In this document: in pieces, positions 5,066-47,773 of the stretch | Layout of the letters: the number at the start of each line of letters is the position of its first letter | Numbering within the stretch: the stretch's first letter is position 1 | Assembly (NCBI GenBank): GCA_016235605.1 | Contig: JACRJW010000075.1 | Coordinates: forward strand, 1-47,773 | Direction: 5' to 3' | Origin: Candidatus Uhrbacteria bacterium | GTDB lineage: Bacteria; Patescibacteriota; Patescibacteriia; UBA9934; GWF2-40-263 | DNA length: 47,773 nt | Position numbers and translations under genes: made by a program | Notes under the pieces: model-generated | Told to the model about the DNA's origin: nothing | What the model saw: only the letters and a program-made list of their open reading frames with translations | The model's database searches: none

Positions 5066-5534
5066 AAGCGACAAGGTCGTTAAATGTAGATTTATCGAAG
5101 AAGTAATACCACCATTTGAGCGGATTGCCAATGTCCGTTTGCATGCCGTCGGCAGGGTTTCCTGTTGAAGGGTCAATCACATAGTGCAGTGGATCCGTTG
5201 GATCCGTTTCTTCGCCCTGCGCCTGATCCTGCTCGTCATCGCGCAGAACCACCACCGTCTCCCCTGGTTTTTTGAGCCCAAGTTTCAACCTCGCCTCACG
5301 TTCGATGAACGACTCCGTTTGCATGGCGGTTTGCAGTTCAAGCATGGCCTGGTTGTCTTTGGTCAGGTTATCGGCCCGCGCCTGGAGGTCGGCAATCTGT
5401 GCGTCGATGGCGCGACTCCTGACGGTCTCGCGGCCCAAGGACATGCCCAGAAAAAGAATCACAAGCACATTCACGACCATGAGGTATCGTGAACGAATGA
5501 GACGTTGGATGAAGGGAGACCTATTGGACATCAT
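5058..5534 (-). CDS. septum formation initiator FtsB/DivIC-like
   Basis: Single N-terminal TM, coiled coil, then ESFIEREARLKLGLKKPGETVVV motif. Confidence 0.65.
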   Translation of the reverse strand: MMSNRSPFIQRLIRSRYLMVVNVLVILFLGMSLGRETVRSRAIDAQIADLQARADNLTKDNQAMLELQTAMQTESFIEREARLKLGLKKPGETVVVLRDDEQDQAQGEETDPTDPLHYVIDPSTGNPADGMQTDIGNPLKWWYYFFDKSTFNDLVAYE

Positions 5535-6045: not shown

Positions 6046-7372
6046 ACAATGCATGAAGAGCCTTACGTGCGGCGACGCGATCATCCCAAGGAATTTTCTT
6101 GCCGCCTGCGACGGCCATGATAGGTTCGCTTCCCTTGCCGGTGATGAGGACAAGATCGTGAGGCACAGCGAGATCGACCGCGAACTGGATCGCCTTCCCA
6201 CGATCCAGAATCTTGAACAGATTCACGCCTTCTTGCTTTCCAGCCGCGCGAGCGGCGTTTGCAACCTCATCGATGATGCTCTCTGGATCCTCATCATACG
6301 GATCTTCGTTGGTGACAATCACGATGTCGTCATGCGCTGCCGCCAGTCTGCCGAGTATCTCACGACGTGCCACATCACGCCCACCGCCAGCAGAACCCAG
6401 AATGTGTATCAGACGTTTATGCTGAACGAGTTTGAGTGTGTCGTATACGGCCGTAAGCGCCGCCGGTTCATAGGCATAGTCCACGATCACCGTGAACGGC
6501 TGGCCTTCGTCGATGCGCTCCAAACGTCCTGGGACAGAATCGAGAGATTCAACACCGTGGCGCATCACTTCCGGTGAGACGCCCAAGACCTTTACCGTCG
6601 CCATCGCTGCAAGTGCATTCTCTAAATAGAACCGACCGGCGGGTTTGAGATGATAGGTTGTTTCGCCAACCGTGAAGGTCGTACAAGATCCCGTAAAATT
6701 TACGTCCGTAGCAGTCATGGGAGTGGTATTCAAGCGTGTGGCAAGAGTTCCCGCCTCGCCCACCGCAAAACCACTGTAACGATCTGCGCCACAGGCAAGG
6801 AACGACTCCGCGTGTGGATCCTGAAGGTTTACCACGATGGACTTTTCGATCACTGTGTCGTTGATCGTCTTGCGCGGCAACCTGCCGAGTCCTTCAAAGA
6901 GCTTGAGTTTAGCCGCCTTGTAATTCTCAAACCCGCCGTGCGCTTCGATGTGCTCGGGCGTGAGGTTGGTAAACACCGCGACGTCGTAGTTGATGCCGAT
7001 GTGGCGAGACTGCGCGATTCCCTGCGATGACGTTTCGATGACGGCATAGCGACACCCCGCAGAGACCATCTCACGCAACAACTTCTGCGTCTGAAACCTT
7101 CCAAGCATGGTCATCTTTTTGTCGTTCACCCATTCACGCTCTGCCACTTTGAAACTCGCGGTCGTCGTCCAACCAACGCGATGCCCTGCGTGCTCCAAGA
7201 GGCGGCCAATGAACTGGACGGTTGTCGACTTCCCGTTGGTTCCCGTGACACCGATCACGACCAGTTTCTCCGAAGGATGGCCATACAAAAAAGCCGCCGC
7301 ACGAGCAAGGCAGTAGTGATACGCCCCAATCACAGATTCAGGCACGAAGCATCTGAGAACGGATTTGAGCAT
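6032..7372 (-). CDS. murE: UDP-N-acetylmuramoyl-tripeptide synthetase MurE
   Basis: GVTGTNGKSTT P-loop, Mur ligase central and C-terminal domains, TNEDPYDEDP (DNPR-like) motif; trimmed to ATG 7372, 4 nt after the murD stop. Confidence 0.85.
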   Translation of the reverse strand: MLKSVLRCFVPESVIGAYHYCLARAAAFLYGHPSEKLVVIGVTGTNGKSTTVQFIGRLLEHAGHRVGWTTTASFKVAEREWVNDKKMTMLGRFQTQKLLREMVSAGCRYAVIETSSQGIAQSRHIGINYDVAVFTNLTPEHIEAHGGFENYKAAKLKLFEGLGRLPRKTINDTVIEKSIVVNLQDPHAESFLACGADRYSGFAVGEAGTLATRLNTTPMTATDVNFTGSCTTFTVGETTYHLKPAGRFYLENALAAMATVKVLGVSPEVMRHGVESLDSVPGRLERIDEGQPFTVIVDYAYEPAALTAVYDTLKLVQHKRLIHILGSAGGGRDVARREILGRLAAAHDDIVIVTNEDPYDEDPESIIDEVANAARAAGKQEGVNLFKILDRGKAIQFAVDLAVPHDLVLITGKGSEPIMAVAGGKKIPWDDRVAARKALHALYGGS

Positions 7373-14338: not shown

Positions 14339-14414
14339 GGGTATTAGGTTGTAGGGAGTAGGTTATAGGGAGAAAATTTCTGCAAGCCTACAACCTAAAA
14401 CCTACAACCTACAA
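14339..14414. repeat. type-B heptad-repeat imperfect palindrome between ftsW and murG
   Basis: GGGTATTAGGTTGTAGGGAGTAGGTTATAGGGAG ... CCTACAACCTAAAACCTACAACCTACAA; the right arm overlaps the last ftsW codons. Confidence 0.7.
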
Positions 14415-32959: not shown

Positions 32960-34129
32960 CTAAAGCTCTGTTAAATTCCTCCCCTGAAAGAGCCCGAGGG
33001 TCCATGTGAAGGCAACGCGCAGCTTGTTCCAGAGGCCTGGAGTTTTAAACAAGTACACCGTGCGCCAGAGAAACCAAGCGACCCTGCCTTTGACAACCAC
33101 CGGTCCGATTTTTCCAACCCCATCGCCGAATCCCAAAGAAAACAATGTGCCCATGACGTGTGGCGTATAGCCTTTCATCGCCCTGTGACGCTGATGCTCG
33201 ACAATGTTGTGCGCAACAAGTCGTGCTTCACGCACGGCGGTTTGGGCGAGTTTGGGAAGCGGCACGCCATCCACGGCCGCCACATCCCCCAACGCAAACA
33301 CATGCTCGTCTTGCACGGTTTGGAGGAAGTGATTGACCGGAACGTGACTATGCTCATCAAGCGCAAGACTCCCTCGTGCCCAGTCCGTATTGGGCCGCAC
33401 TCCCGCGCACAGGATCGTGACATCTGAAGGAAACGTGCCCTTGTTCGTGCCGACCTCTGTTTGGCTGATGCGTTCAGCATGCGCTTCACAGACGACCTCA
33501 ATTCCAGAAGCCGTCATGGCGTTGCCGATGTAGGATTGCACCCGCCGCTCATCATTTGAACACAACCCTTTTCCGGCATGGATCACGCGCAAGGTTACGC
33601 GTGTCTCCGGTTGCTTGAGCAACAGGGCTTGATACAGCTGTGCGATCTCGAAAACAAGCTCAATCCCTGTTGGACCTCCGCCAATCACGTTCACGGCAAC
33701 GGTCCGATCTTCCTCTTGCACTTCAGAAATAAGCGCGTGCTTCAGCGCTATGGCATCTTCAACATTTTTCAACACGAATGCCGACTCGGCCCCTTTGATG
33801 GAATAAAAATTGGTCGTGGCGCCTGTGGCGATCACCAACGTCGCATACGGCTCTTCTTGTCCGTCCACATGGACCAGCCGTTTTTCGCGGTCGACCTGGA
33901 TCGCCTGGCCCCGAATGAAACGAAACCGTGGATCGTGGAAAAAACTTTCATACTCAAACACGATATCGTGGCTCAACAGGGATCCTGTCGCGACTTCATG
34001 CAAAAGTGGCGTGAAGGTAAAATAGTTCGTCTCGCTCACGAGGGTCACAGGCTCACGGCGACGGAGAAGTTCGCGGGCGACATATACGCCGGCAAATCCT
34101 CCACCGATGATGACAACGGGTTCGTTCAT
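32960..34129 (-). CDS. ndh: type II NADH dehydrogenase (NDH-2)
   Basis: VVIIGGGFAGV and VIGGGPTGIE dinucleotide-binding motifs; C-terminal membrane-anchoring helix. Confidence 0.85.
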   Translation of the reverse strand: MNEPVVIIGGGFAGVYVARELLRRREPVTLVSETNYFTFTPLLHEVATGSLLSHDIVFEYESFFHDPRFRFIRGQAIQVDREKRLVHVDGQEEPYATLVIATGATTNFYSIKGAESAFVLKNVEDAIALKHALISEVQEEDRTVAVNVIGGGPTGIELVFEIAQLYQALLLKQPETRVTLRVIHAGKGLCSNDERRVQSYIGNAMTASGIEVVCEAHAERISQTEVGTNKGTFPSDVTILCAGVRPNTDWARGSLALDEHSHVPVNHFLQTVQDEHVFALGDVAAVDGVPLPKLAQTAVREARLVAHNIVEHQRHRAMKGYTPHVMGTLFSLGFGDGVGKIGPVVVKGRVAWFLWRTVYLFKTPGLWNKLRVAFTWTLGLFQGRNLTEL

Positions 34130-34229: not shown

Positions 34230-34297
34230 TCGCGCCGTGTTTACGAAGACGCTTTTGTTTTCGAACACATCCATGATTCTCTCCTGTCGGAGTTCCC

Positions 34298-34822
34298 TTG
34301 CCGCCCACCGCCCCTTCCCTCCAGAGCCTGTACGAAGAATCCCCCTCCTCCCAGGCTACCCATCATCTCCATTCCTTCCCCGACGAAGCGCGTGCGCAGA
34401 TCGGGACGGAAGGAGAGAGCAGGCACATCAGCAACCTCCTCCCCGAGACGGGCGCCTGCGTGCTCGTCACGGTGCACGACCTGGTCGATGACGCGCGTGG
34501 CATCCGCCGCGTCGTGGACAAGGTCGGAAGCCCCAAGCAGGTCTTCGCGGCCACGTGCTCCCAGCCCAGCTACGGGGAGACGTTCCGCACCTCGATCGAC
34601 TGGGCAAAGAAGATCGGCCACGCGGGCGAAGTGATCCTCGTCTCCCACGAACTCGCGGCGCTCTTGGGCGCACAGGCTCATCACGGCAGGCTTCGCAACG
34701 GCATCGTGATCGTGCACGACGGCAAGATCGTCTGGAGCAAGATGGCGGATGTCCACCGTCCCAACACGCCGCACCTCACCGGCAGCGACTTCGACGAGGC
34801 GTTCGACCGCTACAACCGGTAG
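34298..34822 (+). CDS. hypothetical protein, possibly thioredoxin-fold (GC3-rich orphan); start uncertain
   Basis: Strong G/C bias at third positions in this frame; C-part ..ILVSHELAALLG.......RNGIVIVHDGKIVW resembles the redoxin beta-alpha-beta end; TTG start taken from the ORF track, no ATG nearby. Confidence 0.45.
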   Translation: MPPTAPSLQSLYEESPSSQATHHLHSFPDEARAQIGTEGESRHISNLLPETGACVLVTVHDLVDDARGIRRVVDKVGSPKQVFAATCSQPSYGETFRTSIDWAKKIGHAGEVILVSHELAALLGAQAHHGRLRNGIVIVHDGKIVWSKMADVHRPNTPHLTGSDFDEAFDRYNR

Positions 34823-34837
34823 GACACTCCCCCACGC

Positions 34838-34872
34838 GCCACCCTTCGCGAAAGCTTCGGGTGGCTTTTCTT
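34838..34872 (+). terminator. intrinsic terminator
   Basis: GCCACCC-14 nt-GGGTGGC followed by TTTTCTTC. Confidence 0.5.
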
Positions 34873-34874
34873 CT

Positions 34875-34899
34875 AAGCGAAAACCGCCTCTCGGCGGCT
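34875..34899 (-). terminator. intrinsic terminator after rpmG
   Basis: Minus strand CCGCC-gaga-GGCGG followed by TTTTCGCTT. Confidence 0.55.
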
Positions 34900-39946: not shown

Positions 39947-40060
39947 TGATCACGGCAAGACAGATGGATTTTCGACGAATGGTCTGGCGAGCCCCACCTG
40001 ACCCGGTAGCGTGGGGTCGGACAGACCTGAGGAGAAAAGACGGCTGTCTTGCCGTGATCA
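39947..40060. other. 114-nt rod-like hairpin between frr and glyQS
   Basis: Perfect 17-bp stem TGATCACGGCAAGACAG/CTGTCTTGCCGTGATCA enclosing GGTCTG/CAGACC and CCCCAC/GTGGGG helices; it abuts the frr stop codon. Confidence 0.65.
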
Positions 40061-41667: not shown

Positions 41668-42570
41668 TTAGATGCTCAGAGCAATATGCTCGAGAGCTAA
41701 ATGAGGATTGATATTATGACGGGCCGCTTGGCGGGTTTCACAGAGGCGATTGAGAAAAGATACGAGAGGTGGACAGGTAGATGAGGTGGTGAGGAGAAGT
41801 TGACGGCGGGCGACGGTTTGGAGTTCTGTAATCACTTTCTGTAAACGAGAGGCACTGTTCACTTCACCTTTTGGAATGAACTCCATCACGAGACGCAGAC
41901 GCTCCGGCAAACTCGCGGCGAGAAATGCTTCTGCTTGCGCACGATCCGTTTCACGCACGGCTCGGTACGCACTATCTTTGAGGAACCGCAGAGCGAGTCC
42001 AGGCCGGCCTTCGCTGTGAAGCGCGGCTTCGTGTGCATCTGATTGACTGAACCCAGCGCAGATCAGTCCATCAACGATCGCCGTCTGCGCGACAACCGTG
42101 AAGCGCATCACCTGACAACGCGACGCAATGGTTGCAGGGACATCTTCAAGACTCGGCGCGCGCAGAATAAAAAGCGTCTGACCCTTGGGCTCCTCGAGCG
42201 TTTTCAAAAGCGCGTTCGCGCCGCCCATGGAGAGCTTGTGCGCTTCCTCGATGAAGATGACTTTGGTGTCGCCAGTAAACGATGTCATGGATAGTCGACC
42301 AACGAGATCACGCACCTGTCGCACCGAGATATTCGATTTGCGCTTGCCCGTCTTTTCATCATCGAGGCGCTTGAGCTCGAGATAGTCTGGCTGAGTCTCT
42401 AAATTTTGCACTCCCAGAACCTCACGACACAGAGCCTTTGCCACCATCGTCTTCCCGACGTGATCTGAACCGATAAAAAGCAGGGCATGAGGCAGGGATG
42501 TATGCGCGACCATCTTGCCAAGAACCTCTTTTGCCGGAGTGTGACCGATGATCGAAGAGAAGAGCTCCAT
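41668..42570 (-). CDS. holB: DNA polymerase III subunit delta' (HolB)
   Basis: AAA+ clamp-loader pattern HALLFIGSDHVGKT, IFIEEAHKLS, TLEEP; trimmed to ATG 42570 (MELFSS). Confidence 0.75.
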   Translation of the reverse strand: MELFSSIIGHTPAKEVLGKMVAHTSLPHALLFIGSDHVGKTMVAKALCREVLGVQNLETQPDYLELKRLDDEKTGKRKSNISVRQVRDLVGRLSMTSFTGDTKVIFIEEAHKLSMGGANALLKTLEEPKGQTLFILRAPSLEDVPATIASRCQVMRFTVVAQTAIVDGLICAGFSQSDAHEAALHSEGRPGLALRFLKDSAYRAVRETDRAQAEAFLAASLPERLRLVMEFIPKGEVNSASRLQKVITELQTVARRQLLLTTSSTCPPLVSFLNRLCETRQAARHNINPHLALEHIALSI

Positions 42571-42692
42571 ACGGACAATAGTATAGCACGCTGCCAAAAT
42601 GGCTCTGTGATGTCCAGCATAGTAAACAGATGTTTATCAGCTTATCTTAACTAATTTTAGATAAAATTCGGAAGCTTAGCTCCCGAAGAGTC

Positions 42693-42721
42693 TTGACAAA
42701 GTTGACAAAATATGATAGACT
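42693..42721 (+). promoter_or_regulatory. sigma70-like promoter of the accessory block
   Basis: TTGACA (42693-42698), 17-nt spacer, TAGACT (42716-42721); a GGAAGCTTAGCTCCCG box lies 7 bp upstream. Confidence 0.5.
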
Positions 42722-42758
42722 GCGCCCATACAAGATCACACAAAGCACCATACAAAAC

Positions 42759-42884
42759 AGAAACTTTTGAAAAAAGATGAGATGCGAAGTGCTGGAGGTG
42801 AGTAAAGGGCGAGGCGTAGGTAAATCCTACGGTGAGGTCTTTACGAACCGAAGCACGAGCAGATCGCTTTTTTCAAAAGTTTCT
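42759..42884 (+). ncRNA. 126-nt hairpin closed by a perfect 18-bp stem
   Basis: AGAAACTTTTGAAAAAAG/CTTTTTTCAAAAGTTTCT; inner helices GTAAAG/CTTTAC and CGTAGG-taaat-CCTACG. Confidence 0.55.
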
Positions 42885-42897
42885 AAACATTCTCTGG

Positions 42898-43418
42898 GGA
42901 GAGAGTACTAGGCCAAGTAAATGGCCATCAGGCAAAGGTGTTAGGTATTAGGTTATAGGTTGTAGCAAATAACTACATATCTACGATCTAAAGCCTAATA
43001 CCTAAAAGCCGGTTCCTGCATGTATCTCTCCTAACTCGATGCATTCAGCAACCGGTTTTTTGTCTGCCTACCACCTACAACCTAATACCTACTACCTGAT
43101 TTCTTCAGCCTCATGGAGGAGAGAGTACCCGTCCATCCAATGCTTCGGCAGAGGATGGCGGTGATCGCCAAATGGTCCGACTAGGCCTCGGCTTACTCGT
43201 TCCATATGCATGGCGATCACGAAGCATATTGTCCTTCGGGAGAATCACTGCTTCATCACTACCTCCAGTAGGTTGCAGGGATCATCCGATGCAGAAACTC
43301 GGAGGAGAGAGAAAAGGACCACCAAATGACTCGACTGGGTTTACTCACTCGATTCATACGCCCGGTGATCCTCGGCCTACACCAGCCCTCGGGCAGGTCA
43401 CTGGACCATTCTTCTCCG
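42898..43418 (+). ncRNA. three tandem GGAGAGAG-box structured units (unassigned RNA family)
   Basis: Unit 1 42898-43031, unit 2 43114-43267 (closing helix TGGAGG/CCTCCA around three hairpins, two capped by cUUCGg), unit 3 43300-43418; units 2 and 3 share collinear sequence blocks. Confidence 0.45.
43009..43062 (+). terminator. terminator-like hairpin plus T6 inside the leader (possible attenuator)
   Basis: CCGGTT..TGCAT..ATGCA..AACCGG followed by TTTTTTG; its loop contains the 3' strand (TATCTCTCC) of the unit-1 closing helix. Confidence 0.4.
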
Positions 43419-43489
43419 AATTCCTGTGTCGGACCAGAACCCACCGACCAGAACACCGGCAAGCCACAAACTTGCCAAAGGAAAATCAC

Positions 43490-43711
43490 ATGGATCATTC
43501 GATCCTCCTCCACCGTGCCCCGACTCCGTTCTTCTTCTGCACCGCCGACGAGGACCGCTTCCTGGCAACCGGCATCGCCAACTGCACCGGCACCGAGGTT
43601 CCCAGCGCGGCGCTTCGTCGCCGCTTCGGCGTCCCGGTCTACGTCGTCCCCCGCGGCACCAACCGCATCCCGCCCAGCGCCAACCAGGAGCTGGTGGCAG
43701 TCGCGAAGTGA
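43490..43711 (+). CDS. 73-aa hypothetical protein (first ORF of the GC-rich island)
   Basis: ATG 43490 preceded by AAGGAAA and by hairpin GGCAAG-ccacaaa-CTTGCC; GC3-rich from this point; the upstream part of ORF-track 43172..43711 is the structured leader. Confidence 0.45.
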   Translation: MDHSILLHRAPTPFFFCTADEDRFLATGIANCTGTEVPSAALRRRFGVPVYVVPRGTNRIPPSANQELVAVAK

Positions 43712-43788
43712 ACGGCTGACGCGACCGGGAACTCACGGTGAGGGTGTGCACAACACACTCTCACCGATCCCTCAAAGCACATCAGGAA

Positions 43789-43909
43789 CCTCTGCAAAAC
43801 TCGCGATCTTTGCTTTCACAGGCGCCCAGGCACCTCCTCAACGTACGTGTTTAGTACGTTTCGGAGGCTGCCAGCCCGTTCAAGCAAATCTCATCGAGTT
43901 TTGCAGAGG
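43789..43909. repeat. about 120-nt rod-like hairpin element, copy 2
   Basis: Closing stem CCTCTGCAAAACTCG/CGAGTTTTGCAGAGG; the interior differs from copy 1 at only 2 positions. Confidence 0.75.
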
Positions 43910-43950
43910 TTTGATCAATAACTGATGTCCTTCGAGGGATTACCAAACTC

Positions 43951-44133
43951 TATAGTCATCACACCATGAAAGAGGACTTTAGACGCCACGCCTGTAGATG
44001 GGATGCGCCGTCCTGGAGCGTGGAAAAACCGCAGAGGTATCCGTAGATACCTTGAGGATTTTTCCACGCGAAGGACAAGCAGACCGCCACGGGCGTGGAT
44101 GGATAAATCCTGTTTCATGGTGTGATGACTATA
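43951..44133. repeat. 183-nt rod-like element bounded by perfect 21-bp inverted repeats
   Basis: TATAGTCATCACACCATGAAA (43951-43971) and TTTCATGGTGTGATGACTATA (44113-44133); inner helices CCACGCC/GGCGTGG, GTCCT/AGGAC, CGTGGAAAAA/TTTTTCCACG, AGGTATC/GATACCT. Confidence 0.7.
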
Positions 44134-44269
44134 TTGACCTCCCAGTTCCTCTCGTCAAGGAATACATCTTCAAAAAACCCGGCCAGCTCAGCTGGCCATC
44201 TGGAGCGCTCGGGCTTGGCAGCCTGTGCACGACGAAACTCCAGAAAATTTCCTTAAGGAGGAAAACGCC

Positions 44270-44938
44270 ATGGGAACCAAAACACCAATCGTGATGCCCG
44301 ATCGCGCCGTTCCCCTGCCCGCGCCAGCCCGCAAGTCCAAGAAGCCCGCCAGCCCCCCGACCATCCACCAGGTCGCGGAGTCGGCCAAGCGCTTCTGCAA
44401 GGAGATGAGTCTCGGGGACGCGTTCGTGGCACCGCTCTTCGCCTTCGCGGTCAGTTCGGTCCATACGGCGCAGAGCCTTGTGCGCTTCGCGGTCGCGGCC
44501 GTCCGTGCCGAGCAGGGGCGCAGCAAGCTCCGCGGCGACCGCCACGAAATCGTGAATGCCTTCAAGGACTACCTCGAGAAGAACCGCCAGTACGACTTCA
44601 GGGCTCCCAAGCAGGAGCAGGAGGCTCGCAACCTTCTGCTGCGTGGGATCGAGCAGGGCGAGTTCCTTCGCCGCGGCCCCGCCGTGACCGAGGTGATCCT
44701 CGCGTGGACCATCCCGGCGTTCGACGCGGTGGAGGTGTCCGACTTCGCGCAGATCGATCTCCCCAACATGATCAGGGGGAACCTCCGTCTGGCGGAGTGG
44801 CTCCTCCAGAACGCGCTCAAGGACACGCCGGAGCAGAAGGCGCTCTCCGAGTTCACCGCGGCGTACGAGGCCGCCAAGGCGAAGGACGAGGAGTCCGAAG
44901 AGGACGCCGGGGACGAGGACGAACAGGCAGCGAGCTAG
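44270..44938 (+). CDS. 222-aa hypothetical protein with acidic C-terminal tail (island ORF2)
   Basis: AAGGAGG then 7-nt spacer then ATG 44270; very strong G/C at third positions; no family recognised. Confidence 0.65.
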   Translation: MGTKTPIVMPDRAVPLPAPARKSKKPASPPTIHQVAESAKRFCKEMSLGDAFVAPLFAFAVSSVHTAQSLVRFAVAAVRAEQGRSKLRGDRHEIVNAFKDYLEKNRQYDFRAPKQEQEARNLLLRGIEQGEFLRRGPAVTEVILAWTIPAFDAVEVSDFAQIDLPNMIRGNLRLAEWLLQNALKDTPEQKALSEFTAAYEAAKAKDEESEEDAGDEDEQAAS

Positions 44939-44962
44939 CCATGAACGGCTAGCGACCACACG

Positions 44963-45044
44963 GGGCGAGACGACTCTGTACGAGAGTCGTCTCGCCCAGC
45001 CCTAAGAGATCATGAGGCAAGCCTCGTGAACTGCTAGGGCTTCA
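44963..45044 (+). repeat. 82-nt double-hairpin 3' module, copy A
   Basis: 15-bp hairpin GGGCGAGACGACTCT-gtacg-AGAGTCGTCTCGCCC, then CCCTA..CATGAGG-caag-CCTCGTG..TAGGG. Confidence 0.75.
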
Positions 45045-45107
45045 ACCTTCTGCGCCTTGCCCAAGGCAACTGTTTTTTCCACCAATCACTACAACCAGGA
45101 GTCCCCA

Positions 45108-46259
45108 ATGCGCGAATTGACCTTCGCCGACAACGGCACCGTCGCCCCTGGCGACGAGAACGCTCCCGACCTCTGGGAGCTCGCCCTGGACAATCTCGAC
45201 ATCGAAGTCGAAACCCGCCCCTGGCGCGAGATGGACGAGTTCGAGGCCCCGGAGCAGATCTGGGACGAGACGAACGCGCTCGCGCAGGCCGAGGCGGAAG
45301 CCGAGGCCGACAAGTACAAGTTCGACGACGAGACTGACGAGATCGGCGAGGCGATCTACACCGGTGGCTACGACTACCACCGCCCCCGCGATCGCTTCGA
45401 CGATCAGGCCGACGAGCTCAAGATCCAGAACCACACGCTCGTGCGCAAGTACAGGTTCAAGGTGACGGATATCCTGGGAGTCAACGGACAGCTCCTCGGA
45501 GTCGACTACCTCGCTGTGGTGCTCGCCGCGTGCAAGGCGGCCGACGAGATCGCGGATCTCGCCGGCAACGGTGAGGTCTGCAGGGTCATCGCGCAGGCCA
45601 GCGGCTGGAAGGGCGAACTCCCCACGAGGCTCTCGGGCTTCGGGGTGGAAACGTTCTACCGCAGTGCGGGTGCCCTCCAGACCCGTGTCGCCGAGATCAA
45701 GGCCCGCAAGCCGAAGCACAGCGTCATCGTGATGCCCGACCGTCGCGTCGTAGAGCCCGTCCCCTCGCAGACCCCGAGCCGGTCGAAGGGCGCGCCGGTG
45801 ATCCTCGTGGTCCCGACGCAGAAGCCCGAGGGGAGCGACCTCTTCGGTCGGGTGAAAACCCCATCGGGTCTGGCGTTCCGGTGCGTGTGCGGCTGCGGCA
45901 ATCTCGTTCTCGAGAAAGTCGCCGTCGTACCGCCCACCAGTGCGATGCGCGACCGGCAGAACGGCGGCCGCGTGGGATCGAAAGATCTCTGGCGCCACGC
46001 GTTCGGCGAGCGGTGCATCCGTCGGTTCGGCCGCGGATTCTCCCTCAAGGAGAAGATGAACAAGATGATGGACGAAGAGTCCAAGCGCGAGGCCGCGAAC
46101 CGAACCCTGCGTCCGCGCTTCGGGGACGTCATCGGCCACGGTGGCGCCTTCGGCGGATCGGGCAAGGGCCCCACGCCGGGCCAACTCTCCCACCAGGCCG
46201 CACGGGCGGAGGCCGACCGCCAGCTGCGTCTCAAGATGCAGTCGGCGGGCAGGAAGTAG
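45108..46259 (+). CDS. 383-aa hypothetical protein: acidic N-region, CxCxC cluster, basic C-region (island ORF3)
   Basis: AGGAG then 6-nt spacer then ATG 45108; GC3-rich; shares an IVMPDRxV..P.P segment with ORF2. Confidence 0.65.
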   Translation: MRELTFADNGTVAPGDENAPDLWELALDNLDIEVETRPWREMDEFEAPEQIWDETNALAQAEAEAEADKYKFDDETDEIGEAIYTGGYDYHRPRDRFDDQADELKIQNHTLVRKYRFKVTDILGVNGQLLGVDYLAVVLAACKAADEIADLAGNGEVCRVIAQASGWKGELPTRLSGFGVETFYRSAGALQTRVAEIKARKPKHSVIVMPDRRVVEPVPSQTPSRSKGAPVILVVPTQKPEGSDLFGRVKTPSGLAFRCVCGCGNLVLEKVAVVPPTSAMRDRQNGGRVGSKDLWRHAFGERCIRRFGRGFSLKEKMNKMMDEESKREAANRTLRPRFGDVIGHGGAFGGSGKGPTPGQLSHQAARAEADRQLRLKMQSAGRK

Positions 46260-46301
46260 ATCCACGCGATCTACACGGCCAGCTCAACTGGCCACGGACG
46301 A

Positions 46302-46381
46302 GGGCGAGCGATTCTGTACGAGAATCGTTCGCCCGACCCTAAGAATCCATGAGGCACGCCTCGTGAACTGCTAGGGTTTCA
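46302..46381 (+). repeat. 82-nt double-hairpin 3' module, copy B
   Basis: GGGCGAGCGATTCT-gtacg-AGAATCGTTCGCCC, then CCCTA..CATGAGG-cacg-CCTCGTG..TAGGG; collinear with copy A. Confidence 0.75.
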
Positions 46382-46408
46382 TACCCAAACTCTCTCCCAA
46401 GGAGAAGC

Positions 46409-46447
46409 AAAAAACCGTCCTGAGTTTATCGAAGGGCGGTTTTTTGT
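46409..46447. terminator. bidirectional-type terminator closing the island
   Basis: AAAAA-ACCGTCC-13 nt-GGGCGGT-TTTTTTG. Confidence 0.55.
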
Positions 46448-46473
46448 TTGCCAATATCCTACAACACGACCGC

Positions 46474-46502
46474 TTGACGGACTCCCTGGGGGGTGTTAAT
46501 CT
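46474..46502 (+). promoter_or_regulatory. sigma70-like promoter
   Basis: TTGACG, 17-nt spacer, TAATCT. Confidence 0.45.
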
Positions 46503-46565
46503 GCTTTATCGTTTCTGTGGTGGAAACGTTTCATTGCCTAACCGGCAAGGAGTGAGGAGGATCTG

Positions 46566-46721
46566 ATGGAAAGGAAAAGAGAGAGTCCTTTCGACGCCAT
46601 CGCTTTGCTCCACGAGTACGCAACTCGCTGGGCTCTGCGACTTGTACAAGGTCGGCAACATCTCGTGGATGCAGATCCACGGAGGTTCCAACCAACCTAC
46701 ATTTGCGACGGCGGCGGCTGA
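46566..46721 (+). CDS. 51-aa hypothetical peptide
   Basis: GAGGAGG then 5-nt spacer then ATG; MERKRESPFDAIALLHEYATRWALRLVQGRQHLVDADPRRFQPTYICDGGG; own promoter and terminator; below the ORF-track cutoff. Confidence 0.4.
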   Translation: MERKRESPFDAIALLHEYATRWALRLVQGRQHLVDADPRRFQPTYICDGGG

Positions 46722-46776
46722 CGACCTTTCCCTCTTTTCTCTCCTGAATTCCTCACCACAGACCTGACCACGACGA

Positions 46777-46806
46777 ACGGATCGCACGCGATCCGTATTA
46801 TTTTTG
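46777..46806. terminator. hairpin plus T-run between the convergent small ORF and trmB
   Basis: ACGGATC-gcacgc-GATCCGT followed by ATTATTTTTGG. Confidence 0.5.
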
Positions 46807-47592
46807 GGTGGATTGCTTCACGGGATATTCTTGGGCGCCTCGCCAGGCAAGTTCAAACATCGCCCTGACGACTTCCGCGATCTCGTGGCTGATAATGACA
46901 CAAGCCAACACGGCCGACTTATAAGAAAAAAGAAACACATGATTTCCACGGACTGTGACTTCGCCGTGGATGGGAAACTCGCTCCGAGGGAGCATACGCA
47001 CTTGCCCAACTCCCATATTTTCGTTTTCCAGTTTGGATGGATCGTCAACCAAAATAAGTTTCCGGGCAGAGACACCTGCCTTTCCTTCTTGATGGCGCAG
47101 GCGTTGCATGTGCTCAAGACGGCCGTGGACAAATTCCTCGGTCGCCAGTACGTCTTCACGCGGATAAATCTGTATAAAATCTCCAGGAAGTTTTTCAAAA
47201 ATCTGCCGTACCGTCTCTATCCCTTCTGGCCCTTCCAAATATCGCACTTGCGGCTTGGCCCCTTCAGCGTTGTAGAGATTTGTCAGCAACGGCATCACCT
47301 TCCCAAGCTCGAGTTCTTTTTCTGCCAACTCCTTCTGCTTGACCTGAATGATCGACATCAACCGATCTGGGCTCTCGGAAACATAAAATCGTCTCTTGCC
47401 TTTTTGGAACGTGGACATGAGCCCACGACTGGCAAGTGATTCGATCATCACATAGGTCGTCGCACGGTTGACGTGGGCCTTGTGGGAAATGTCTTGCACG
47501 GGAGAGGGTCCAAGCTCAAGAGCGGCGAGATAGACCCGCGCCTCTTTGTCGGAGAGCCCCAAGTGTTCAAGTTCTTGTTTGAGTTCGTCCAT
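46798..47592 (-). CDS. TrmB-family transcriptional regulator
   Basis: Trimmed to ATG 47592 (MDELKQELEHLGLSDKEARVYLAALELGPSPVQDIS...), a winged-helix TrmB N-domain. Confidence 0.8.
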   Translation of the reverse strand: MDELKQELEHLGLSDKEARVYLAALELGPSPVQDISHKAHVNRATTYVMIESLASRGLMSTFQKGKRRFYVSESPDRLMSIIQVKQKELAEKELELGKVMPLLTNLYNAEGAKPQVRYLEGPEGIETVRQIFEKLPGDFIQIYPREDVLATEEFVHGRLEHMQRLRHQEGKAGVSARKLILVDDPSKLENENMGVGQVRMLPRSEFPIHGEVTVRGNHVFLFSYKSAVLACVIISHEIAEVVRAMFELAWRGAQEYPVKQSTQK

Positions 47593-47603
47593 AATGGCTG
47601 ACA

Positions 47604-47773
47604 CTACACCATGGCTCTCAAACTGTCCAGAGTCTGCGCCGCTGTGCGTTCCCAAGAGAAATCTTGGACGCGTTGTCTGCCTTTTTGGACAAGCTCAGCA
47701 CGCAGGCTTCCCTCTTTGACCACCCGCGAGAGCGCATGCGCCCAAGCTTCTGGTTCCCCAGGTGGCACCAAAA
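47604..47773 (-). CDS. C-terminal fragment of a glycosyltransferase (GT1-like), 5' end outside the window
   Basis: rc frame open from the window edge: ..LRAELVQKGRQRVQDFSWERTAAQTLDSLRAMV, stop at 47604-47606; the FSWE..A pattern is typical of GT1 C-termini. Confidence 0.45.
   Translation of the reverse strand, partial: LVPPGEPEAWAHALSRVVKEGSLRAELVQKGRQRVQDFSWERTAAQTLDSLRAMV

Follow-up and report, generated by a model that had tools for sequence, protein, structure and literature searches.

A fixed Shine-Dalgarno-led operon with its own codon usage, structured RNA classes and protein families in Candidatus Uhrbacteria

Introduction

Between holB and a TrmB-family gene, the genome of a Candidatus Uhrbacteria bacterium carries a block of three plus-strand open reading frames (ORF1-3) whose composition, translation signals and structured RNA differ from those of the surrounding backbone genes. 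The block lies on contig JACRJW010000075.1 (assembly GCA_016235605.1), which was analyzed over its whole length of 47,773 nucleotides (nt) and is referred to here as the window. An earlier note on this DNA, made from the letters alone, had read the block as an inserted accessory island of orphan genes. We asked whether it was acquired or belongs to the lineage, and what its unusual features may have in common. We keep the word island as a label of position for the block and its counterparts in related genomes.

Our analysis shows an operon that is self-contained and present throughout the clade, with translation signals and a codon dialect of its own and with previously undescribed RNA classes and protein families. 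The layout comprises a strong sigma-70-type promoter, a leader of ~110 nt, a terminator, two leader RNAs (A and B) and a series of cistrons led by Shine-Dalgarno (SD) sites, namely an ORF1-like gene, members of the ORF2 and ORF3 families and, in some lineages, small membrane peptides. The earlier view of a single unit complete in itself, with a structured leader and recurring RNA modules, is thereby supported; that of an insertion did not survive comparison with related genomes.

Results

The operon occupies the same locus in related genomes

We compared the holB-TrmB interval across related contigs, which are designated by L numbers. Homologues of ORF3 or ORF2 stand at the same locus in relatives, and each of nine independent Uhrbacteria contig contexts (L001, L005, L008, L009, L011, L015, L016/L017, L018 and L020) places the block in the holB / TrmB-GT4-MreB neighbourhood. 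Both flanks are visible in seven of these; L008 and L020 end within the island, so that the TrmB side alone can be seen. The left side, on the minus strand, reads TIM-M16 peptidase-aminoacyl-tRNA synthetase (aaRS)-RRF-BNR protein-holB, the island itself lies on the plus strand, and the right side, again on the minus strand, reads TrmB-GT4-MreB-DUF4012-GT2. The name holB given earlier to the left neighbour is correct (PF13177), but the gene called trmB encodes a TrmB-family helix-turn-helix regulator (PF01978) and not a tRNA methyltransferase. Among these genomes holB is 51-85% identical, and backbone proteins go down to ~51%.

The protein families are confined to the same lineage. ORF3 has five close homologues, and an exhaustive profile search yielded 29 family representatives at the 50% identity level; all source-named members belong to Candidatus Uhrbacteria or unclassified Patescibacteria, and no homologue of ORF3 or ORF2 was detected beyond Uhrbacteria among ~15 billion proteins. 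One word-indexed homology search (profile A2) was swamped by low-complexity candidates and gained one protein. A viral or plasmid origin also found no footing, as there is neither an integrase, an att site, a flanking tRNA nor a viral or plasmid relative. Pfam gave no integrase or transposase domain at the locus, no tRNA lies within 7 kb of the island, and the sole flanking repeat, D6, consists of two terminator tails, with no other direct-repeat boundaries. Searches of PHROGs, of phage and plasmid records by tblastn, and of IMG/VR with a protein profile and two RNA patterns returned no match, and neither did PADLOC-DB for ORF1-3, the small ORF and long ORF3 variants.

The earlier note had itself named a shared position of the block in relatives as evidence that would refute its reading. 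Because this is the arrangement found, we interpret the block, from comparative sequence, as a vertically inherited, lineage-defining operon of Candidatus Uhrbacteria and not as an insertion.

Some contigs are unusual in other respects. The ORF3-bearing metagenomic contigs L006, L007, L008, L012, L014, L019 and L020 end within the island or at its border, perhaps because repeats and hairpins, or a heterogeneous population at this locus, hinder assembly. L011 (CAYHRJ010000007.1) is labelled 'uncultured Gammaproteobacteria', yet carries an Uhrbacteria backbone and the island, and is probably mis-binned or mislabelled. L015 has an extra 441-amino acid (aa) gene without Pfam match (1382-2707) between the M16 peptidase and aaRS genes, absent at other loci. 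The island is itself lengthened by extra SD-led small genes in L015 (9648-13478), L009 (10071-10654), L001 (9485-9613) and L007 (3179-3459). These are rich in G and C at third codon positions (fraction 0.75-0.89), and many encode hydrophobic or membrane peptides; examples are a common ...GPHLRGII C-terminus and one DUF5658 protein.

The compositional anomaly is confined to wobble positions

The rise in GC content that first drew attention to the block is real (0.63-0.65 for 44-46 kb, compared with 0.537 for the whole window), and third codon positions are dominated by G and C as described earlier, at 0.87-0.89. The GC fraction at third codon positions (GC3) is 0.865 in ORF1, 0.888 in ORF2 and 0.878 in ORF3, against 0.58 in neighbouring backbone genes. 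Among ORFs of at least 150 aa elsewhere in the window, with alternative-frame ORFs overlapping the island set aside, the one at 34298-34822 alone equals the island GC3. The description of a GC-rich block nevertheless holds for the ORFs and not for the spacers. The 2 kb of non-coding island DNA in the window has a GC content of 0.504, below the window average and compared with 0.532 for the rest, and the non-coding DNA of each island (2-2.7 kb) lies at 0.45-0.55, approximately the genome average. The GC3 contrast recurs in each lineage, as listed below for the two large ORFs, or for three ORFs where three were called:

Window: island GC3 0.87-0.89; backbone GC3 0.58
L001: island GC3 0.88-0.90; backbone GC3 0.53
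L009 (two large ORFs): island GC3 0.94-0.96; backbone GC3 0.42
L015 (two large ORFs): island GC3 0.98-0.996; backbone GC3 0.52
L016: island GC3 0.74-0.78; backbone GC3 0.35
L018 (two large ORFs): island GC3 0.90-0.95; backbone GC3 0.44

Operon GC3 thus reaches 0.996 in a clade whose genomes span ~42 to 53% GC. Since foreign origin, regional mutation or conversion bias should shift the spacers too, the compositional anomaly is a wobble-position bias, a force on codons in all lineages, and not a regional or foreign composition. Composition departs from the backbone in every relative; the anomaly is, therefore, an actively maintained property of the locus and not the trace of a recent transfer.

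Codon choice in the island follows the order NNC > NNG >> NNU, NNA. TAC, TTC, ATC and TGC make up ~100% of their respective codon pairs, NNC is preferred for every pyrimidine-ending codon, and the residual U-ending codons are CGU and GGU. Neither rpmG, the sole ribosomal protein gene in the window (GC3 0.65 by hand count), nor RRF or other housekeeping genes carry this type of bias. The gene at 32960-34129 had been considered as an EF-Tu expression reference, but its translation shows otherwise and rpmG was taken instead.

A second small GC3-rich orphan gene lies on the plus strand at 34298-34822 (region 34240-34880), between a minus-strand housekeeping gene and rpmG. It encodes up to 174 aa at a GC3 of 0.87, starts at a TTG with GGAG 6 nt ahead of it, and has a promoter (TTGACG-17-TAAAAT) and a terminator to itself. 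The genome may therefore hold a small class of such GC3-rich, SD-led genes that is not tied to one locus.

SD sites mark the operon in a backbone that lacks them

The SD sites described earlier are present at AAGGAGG (44255-44261) for ORF2 and AGGAG (45097-45101) for ORF3, and that of ORF1 is indeed weak (AAGGAAA, 43478-43484). The reported absence of SD sites from backbone genes likewise holds. When the window and six related loci are counted together, GGAG or GAGG occurs at -20 to -4 in 2/64 backbone genes versus 21/29 island genes (Fisher p = 2e-12). Among holB (41668-42597) and the backbone genes of L001, L005, L016 and L018, several instead have a box resembling TATAAT or TATACT at 6-10 nt ahead of the ATG, and leaderless mRNAs may thus be widespread in these Uhrbacteria.

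The operon begins with a promoter, a terminator and two covarying leader RNAs

The following elements precede ORF1, all on the plus strand:

42693-42721 (+): operon promoter, TTGACA, 17-nt spacer, TAGACT, with an extended -10 TG
42728-43004 (+): short 5' leader with a conserved core at 42885-42930 and the invariant UCUGGGGAGAGAGUAC at 42893-42908
43005-43066 (+): intrinsic terminator and candidate attenuator, CCGGUU...AACCGG followed by a U tract, directly before leader A
43102-43283 (+): leader RNA type A, a four-way junction with a closing helix of CAGCCUCAUGGAGGAG with CUACCUCCAGUAGGUUG
43289-43454 (+): leader RNA type B, a three-way junction with a closing helix of GCAGAAACUCGGAGGAGA with UCUUCUCCGAAUUCCUGC, immediately upstream of ORF1

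The promoter is the only promoter-like site in 42500-46900 besides that of a downstream unit at 46474-46502, and its sequence is kept in the alignments of L001, L005, L011 and L009. The leader core is 88-94% identical to L001, L005 and L011, and UCUGGGGAGAGAGUAC is kept in all seven aligned loci. Two lineage-specific hairpins, 42747-42884 and 42931-43003, interrupt the leader in the window and are gaps in L001, L005 and L011; the fold z-score of the hairpin at 42750-42895 is -10.9. The terminator stem and U tract stand at the same position in L001, L005, L009, L011, L015, L016 and L018. Leader A begins ~10-45 nt past the U tract with no intervening promoter, and expression of the ORFs would need read-through of the terminator, that is, attenuation.

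Both leader RNAs show the riboswitch-type trait of a conserved 5' untranslated region (UTR) structure with covariation. Leader A contains 61 pairs, 32 of them with compensatory changes (RNAalifold, 8 loci); 93.8% of its cells are paired compared with 33-43% in slid controls, and none of 500 shuffles reached the observed value. For leader B, 19 of 48 pairs are compensatory (9 loci), and its covariance model R1 finds one copy per locus at E = 1e-28 to 1e-38. As R1 cross-matches leader A, and nothing further in the window, the two leaders are paralogues. In the closing helix of both, an invariant GGAGGAGA is paired to a CCUCC or CUUCUCC strand that resembles an anti-SD, and SD-complementary strands occur in these leader P1 helices as well as ahead of the ORF2 SD. 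Among 4227 Rfam families, no match to a leader or to the 3' module described below was obtained. The gathering threshold gave tRNAs alone, and relaxing it to E <= 5 across 42550-46850 added only chance microRNA and small RNA matches.

A second structured RNA follows nearly every cistron

The remaining non-coding elements of the operon and of the adjoining unit are as follows:

43727-43772 (+): hairpin 3' of ORF1, GUGAGGG/CUCUCAC in the window versus GCGAGGG/CUCUCGC in L007
43787-43911 and 43951-44133 (+): two long near-perfect hairpins in the ORF1-ORF2 spacer (inverted repeats I7 and I1; z = -10.3)
44139-44269 (+): structured 5' UTR of ORF2, with the SD AAGGAGG (44255-44261) and a complementary UUUCCUU upstream
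44958-45044 (+): 3' module copy 1, a GC hairpin, then CCCUAAGAG..CAUGA, a hairpin and UCGUGAACUGCUAGGG
46296-46381 (+): 3' module copy 2 (model R2, 74.9 bits, E = 3e-18; fold z = -5.7)
46388-46449 (+): operon end, an invariant ACUCUCUCCCAAGGAG mini-hairpin, then a bidirectional terminator at 46405-46449 (inverted repeat I10)
46474-46805 (+): separate downstream unit, with promoter-like TTGACG, 17-nt spacer, TAATCT (46474-46502) and the SD GAGGAGG
46566-46721 (+): ORF of the downstream unit, 51 aa, ...DPRRF.P.YIC.GGG, with a terminator at 46777-46805

The repeated RNA module reported after both large ORFs is confirmed (44958-45044 and 46296-46381), with a 53-nt core that is 87% identical. Copy 1 matches model R2 at 77 bits (E = 8e-19; fold z = -6.6). 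The covariance model finds 23 copies at E < 1e-5, all on the plus strand and all within islands; for the leader and module models together, matches are limited to islands and strong ones to the coding strand. The module follows nearly every cistron, including those of the distant L009, L015, L016 and L018. In the alignment of the 23 copies, 95% of cells are paired and 9/15 pairs are compensatory, and the internal-loop nucleotides of the module are invariant, as are the leader P1 strands. A hammerhead or other small ribozyme was considered for the module and rejected, as the core motifs misfit and Rfam gave no match.

The long hairpins noted earlier between the ORFs are also real (fold z ~ -10 to -11 relative to shuffled sequence). 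Those at 43787-43911 and 43951-44133 are missing in L005 and L007, in which the flanking conserved sequence is contiguous. The hairpin at 43727-43772 shows compensatory changes in L007, where a BLAST match spans the region. The largest hairpins (42747-42884, 43787-43911 and 43951-44133) are lineage-specific insertions outside the conserved design. They are not specific to the island, as similar ones lie at 39947-40060 and 14340-14411. The long near-perfect non-coding hairpins of 114-183 nt (the three in the island and 39947-40060) include one with a possible AAACA duplication and another with 21-nt perfect terminal inverted repeats beginning TATAG, and could be palindromic insertions resembling miniature inverted-repeat transposable elements. 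Tandem-unit hairpins (TAGGTTR / CCTACAA and similar) recur across intergenic regions of this genome and its relatives (42936-43097, 14340-14411, L011 ~5080-5300 and L005 ~7100-7200).

The 5' UTR of ORF2 shares 87% identity with L005 and 81% with L007, even though the ORF bodies that follow it are unalignable; its upstream UUUCCUU may sequester the SD. At the operon end, the ACUCUCUCCCAAGGAG motif is exact in L001, L005, L006, L008 and L011 and occurs above chance in the window. Its first ten bases, ACUCUCUCCC (46389-46398), are perfectly complementary to GGGAGAGAGU (42897-42906). In the downstream unit, alignment shows that promoter, SD, ORF end and terminator are kept in L006, L011 and L001. 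A third leader-type RNA had been considered at 46512-46805, but model R1 gave no match and the region holds a conserved small ORF. The 51-aa product ends in ...YICDGGG and is Cys-rich in relatives.

The operon encodes two clade-specific protein families

The earlier note recognized no family for the three ORFs, and Pfam, PHROG and PADLOC indeed gave no match; the same three collections returned no family for their relatives. The proteins are:

43490-43711 (+): ORF1, 73 aa, GC3 0.865, weak SD
44270-44938 (+): ORF2, 222 aa, GC3 0.888, basic N-terminus with a PxR motif, helical core and acidic tail ending AAS
45108-46259 (+): ORF3, 383 aa, GC3 0.878, acidic N-region, helical domain (~96-200), PxR linker, Cys-cluster domain and basic tail

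ORF1 relatives in L001, L005 and L007 have a common motif, RAPTPFFF..ADED.FL.TG..NCTGT, and distant loci have a small hydrophobic peptide gene in the ORF1 position. For ORF2, whose acidic tail is present as described, sequence search detects a single homologue. The family is nevertheless found at every locus, in two subtypes linked by profile-profile comparison only: it stands at the locus in L009, L015, L016 and L018, and the proteins of 204-234 aa in L001, L005, L007 and L011 are its homologues (hhalign 98.3%, E = 2.6e-14, 17% identity).

In ORF3, the acidic N-region (variable, with a charge of -22 over residues 1-95), the basic tail and the FRCVCGCGN cysteine cluster were all found as noted earlier. 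The six sequences of the close group all have C259, C261, C263 and C303, whereas distant members such as P0022, P0026, P0028 and P0029 carry His in place of C303. The C-terminal domain thus has four conserved Cys/His ligands, which make it a putative zinc site. An AlphaFold2 model built from a 30-sequence alignment reached a predicted local distance difference test score (pLDDT) of 79, with both domains above 90, and superseded a six-sequence run with a pLDDT of 52. Weak Foldseek matches cover ~70 residues, for example a TRAF-type zinc finger (probability 0.77). A hidden Markov model search of PDB sequences with the 30-sequence ORF3 profile yielded no match beyond chance at E = 0.1, and in these searches the C-terminal domain resembled no known Zn-ribbon, knuckle or treble-clef family, either in sequence or, at E < 0.1, in fold.

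The segment shared by ORF2 and ORF3 (IVMPDR) is present, also at the DNA level (17 nt, 94%; repeat D11), but the module duplication that had been deduced from it is better described as a short linear motif. The motif (I/L)V(M/L)PxR...P is conserved throughout the clade; ORF2 proteins carry it at the N-terminus and ORF3 proteins in the linker between their domains, a placement that suggests a common docking partner, not duplication.

The proteins evolve rapidly between conserved RNA flanks

The island proteins diverge ~3x faster than the backbone, with nonsynonymous rates (dN) of 0.33-0.36 versus 0.10-0.16. ORF3 is 52-67% identical where backbone proteins are 76-93% identical. The ratio of nonsynonymous to synonymous rates (dN/dS) in the island is 0.35-0.83; a comparison of dS itself is uninterpretable, as the synonymous sites are saturated within a C/G-only alphabet. 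Identity to L005 is mosaic. The leaders are 77-83% identical and the ORF2 5' UTR 82%; the value falls to 40-55% in the body of ORF2, with sharp breaks at the start and tail of this gene, returns to ~70% over its tail and the 3' module, and lies at 72-84% in the core of ORF3. The RNA modules are better conserved than the island proteins.

The window ORF2 is 39% identical to that of L009 (backbone 58%) and less than 20% identical to those of L001 and L005 (backbone 81-85%); its subtype is that of distant genomes and not that of the closest relatives. Gene order in the island varies between lineages, and the relationships of trmB and holB are incongruent. The TrmB-family gene (46798-47655) is 89% identical between the window and L006, 68% between the window and L001, and 83% between L001 and L016, though holB of L001 and L016 is only 54% identical. 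The right flank of the island has, therefore, also been exchanged between lineages. Together, the mosaic identity, the ORF2 subtypes, the gene order and the trmB/holB incongruence indicate that recombination at the conserved RNA flanks exchanges cistrons.

Discussion

A self-regulating structured mRNA as the favoured explanation

The reading that we favour, tentatively, is a vertically inherited operon that forms a self-regulating, structured and stable SD-dependent mRNA, with products that bind RNA modules of their own transcript. The leader terminator would gate transcription. Closed 5' domains, a 3' hairpin module for each cistron and G/C wobble positions suggest that the polycistronic RNA would be unusually structured, long-lived and nuclease-resistant, and such structure would make SD pairing necessary for ribosome loading on each cistron. 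The operon products would then bind the repeated RNA modules, giving a self-regulating or self-assembling RNA-protein system. Because the paired strands and internal-loop bases are invariant, specific recognition appears plausible, most plausibly by ORF3 with ORF2; the likeliest binder would be ORF3, via its Cys3(Cys/His) domain and basic tail, together with the acidic-tailed ORF2 through the PxR motif.

Several points weigh against this reading. RNA stabilization, attenuation and protein-RNA binding are all deduced from anatomy. The terminator lies upstream of the large leader RNAs, and not downstream as in classical riboswitch leaders. Foldseek against PDB and BFVD gave no fold relative of ORF3 at E < 0.1, known RNA-binding proteins included. 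The expression reference for the codon bias is one ribosomal protein gene, and the extreme wobble bias could reflect translational selection for very high expression or a different tRNA pool.

A more far-reaching interpretation, which we hold to be improbable, would see a second, orthogonal gene-expression regime at one fixed locus, with transcript and proteins forming a Gag-like self-recognizing particle, or a cassette that is decoded outside its normal context. It would take as its starting point fast-evolving genes with a consensus promoter, SD sites, NNC/NNG codons and hairpin-bounded cistrons, all universal bacterial signals, inside genomes whose other genes are SD-less or leaderless and unbiased in codon use; such decoding could occur, for example, inside a host cell, if these bacteria are episymbionts as presumed, or during dormancy.

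Alternative explanations

The mosaic evolution of the locus could also be that of a recombination hot spot, in which diversifying selection from phage or host-cell conflict drives cassette exchange and the GC excess is a by-product of GC-biased gene conversion. This would fit a window ORF2 that is nearer to L009 than to L001 or L005 against the backbone relationships, the sharp identity breaks relative to L005 at the ORF2 start and tail, the lineage-varying gene order with incongruent trmB and holB, and a dN of ~3x backbone at a dN/dS of 0.35-0.83. We nevertheless consider it unlikely, as regional conversion should lift unconstrained non-coding sites and the excess is found at third positions only, neither the SD sites nor the conserved RNA domains are accounted for, and PADLOC gave no match to a known defence family. 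There is likewise a small chance that the block is simply the protein operon that these cells express most strongly, encoding for example an abundant pair of cytoplasmic structural or nucleoid proteins, and that its RNA modules have no operon-encoded partner. Promoter, SD sites, NNC/NNG codons and mRNA stabilizers would then all contribute to yield. The promoter is near-consensus with an extended -10, and NNC is universal for pyrimidine-ending codons with residual CGU and GGU, a preference typical of highly expressed genes in GC-rich bacteria; the 5' closing stems and 3' hairpins moreover recall known mRNA stabilizers. Bacteria of the Candidate Phyla Radiation (CPR) are, however, expected to have weak translational selection, and the bias is missing from rpmG, RRF and further housekeeping genes. 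Rapid protein evolution and allele replacement would be odd for abundant structural proteins, and the invariant internal loops of the 3' module and leader P1 strands point to specific recognition beyond stability.

Origins outside the lineage fare worse. Orphan proteins with confident novel folds, repeated RNA signals on the element's own transcript, and expression signals that differ from the backbone and include an own promoter and terminators might suggest a resident selfish or domesticated virus-like element, with ORF3 as a Gag- or nucleocapsid-like RNA packager, or a cassette for expression in a host cell, which would account for signals as general among bacteria as SD sites and GC-rich codons. 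We regard this as very improbable given the fixed locus in all genomes, the lack of relatives of integrase, replicase, capsid or terminase, the absence of the proteins and RNA motifs from the viral and plasmid collections searched, the lack of direct-repeat boundaries beyond the terminator tails of D6, and the lack of transfer machinery nearby. A recently acquired foreign island from a GC-rich donor, the reading implied by the earlier note, is refuted by synteny and hardly tenable. Atypical composition and orphan proteins are what such an island would show, but all relatives have the block at this locus, even where backbone proteins have diverged to ~51% identity, and it has no homologue outside Uhrbacteria among ~15 billion proteins, no GC-rich spacers and no mobility genes.

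Comparison with known systems

With cis-regulatory leaders such as riboswitches, ribosomal-protein leaders and the tandem glycine riboswitch, the operon has in common tandem paralogous junction RNAs in a 5' UTR, covariation, an intrinsic terminator and SD-complementary strands. It differs in having no Rfam match, closing helices that are invariant instead of covarying, an upstream terminator and no hint of a ligand. Known mRNA stabilizers include the STAB-SD 5' element of cry3A (B. thuringiensis), the cry 3' retroregulators, the ompA 5' stem-loops and the puf/pap intercistronic hairpins. Like these, the operon has upstream SD-like GGAGG at the 5' ends of its leaders, far from start codons, and a hairpin per cistron; here, however, GGAGG is paired in a closing helix and the 3' element adds a second domain, whose conserved internal loop suggests specific recognition. 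Few genes with strong SDs in an SD-less genome also recall rpsU of Bacteroidia, an SD-led exception where SD pairing is otherwise unused, but the present case is a whole orphan operon with distinct codon usage as well and no known link to a ribosomal protein.

Genomic islands and morons are comparable in their atypical composition, own promoter and terminators, and orphan genes between housekeeping genes, whereas this operon is clade-fixed, has wobble-only GC and lacks mobility genes, att sites and a donor lineage. Integron cassette arrays and clusters of attC sites lacking integrases (CALINs) likewise hold co-oriented ORFs, each with a structured repeat, in an order and content that vary at a fixed chromosomal site, but the repeats of the operon show RNA-type covariation on the coding strand. 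An integron array with attC sites was rejected, as neither IntI nor any other recombinase domain lies at the locus, and by eye the repeats, which have CCUAAGAG...CUGCUAGG, show no GTTRRRY core and no R/L boxes. A type III toxin-antitoxin system was rejected on the grounds that there are only two diverged ~180-nt leader paralogues and no ToxN/AbiE-type match in Pfam or PADLOC. The functional analogy with Gag-nucleocapsid and Zn-knuckle packaging proteins lies in the helical domain, Cys-rich putative Zn site and basic tail of ORF3 and in structured repeats on its own mRNA; ORF3, however, has no fold or sequence similarity to them, its CxCxC...C/H pattern is unlike CCHC knuckles, and reverse transcriptase, protease and integrase are lacking. 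The searchable literature on Uhrbacteria and Patescibacteria, SD sites, GC content and RNA motifs contained nothing matching the proteins, the RNAs or their combination, and with nothing comparable in Pfam, PHROGs, PADLOC, PDB, BFVD, Rfam or viral and plasmid collections, we regard the system as categorically new.

Significance

For molecular evolution, the operon is among the cleanest cases of a sustained selection or codon-specific force on synonymous sites, and it occurs in organisms in which selection is thought to be weak. For translation biology, it sets SD-led against SD-less initiation inside one genome. RNA biology gains three classes of structured RNA that have covariation support and no counterpart in Rfam, and CPR biology gains two Uhrbacteria-specific protein families with confident models and no sequence relatives, of which ORF3 has no fold relatives either. 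The locus adjoins cell-envelope and replication genes, and these protein families are candidates for the special traits of the lineage.

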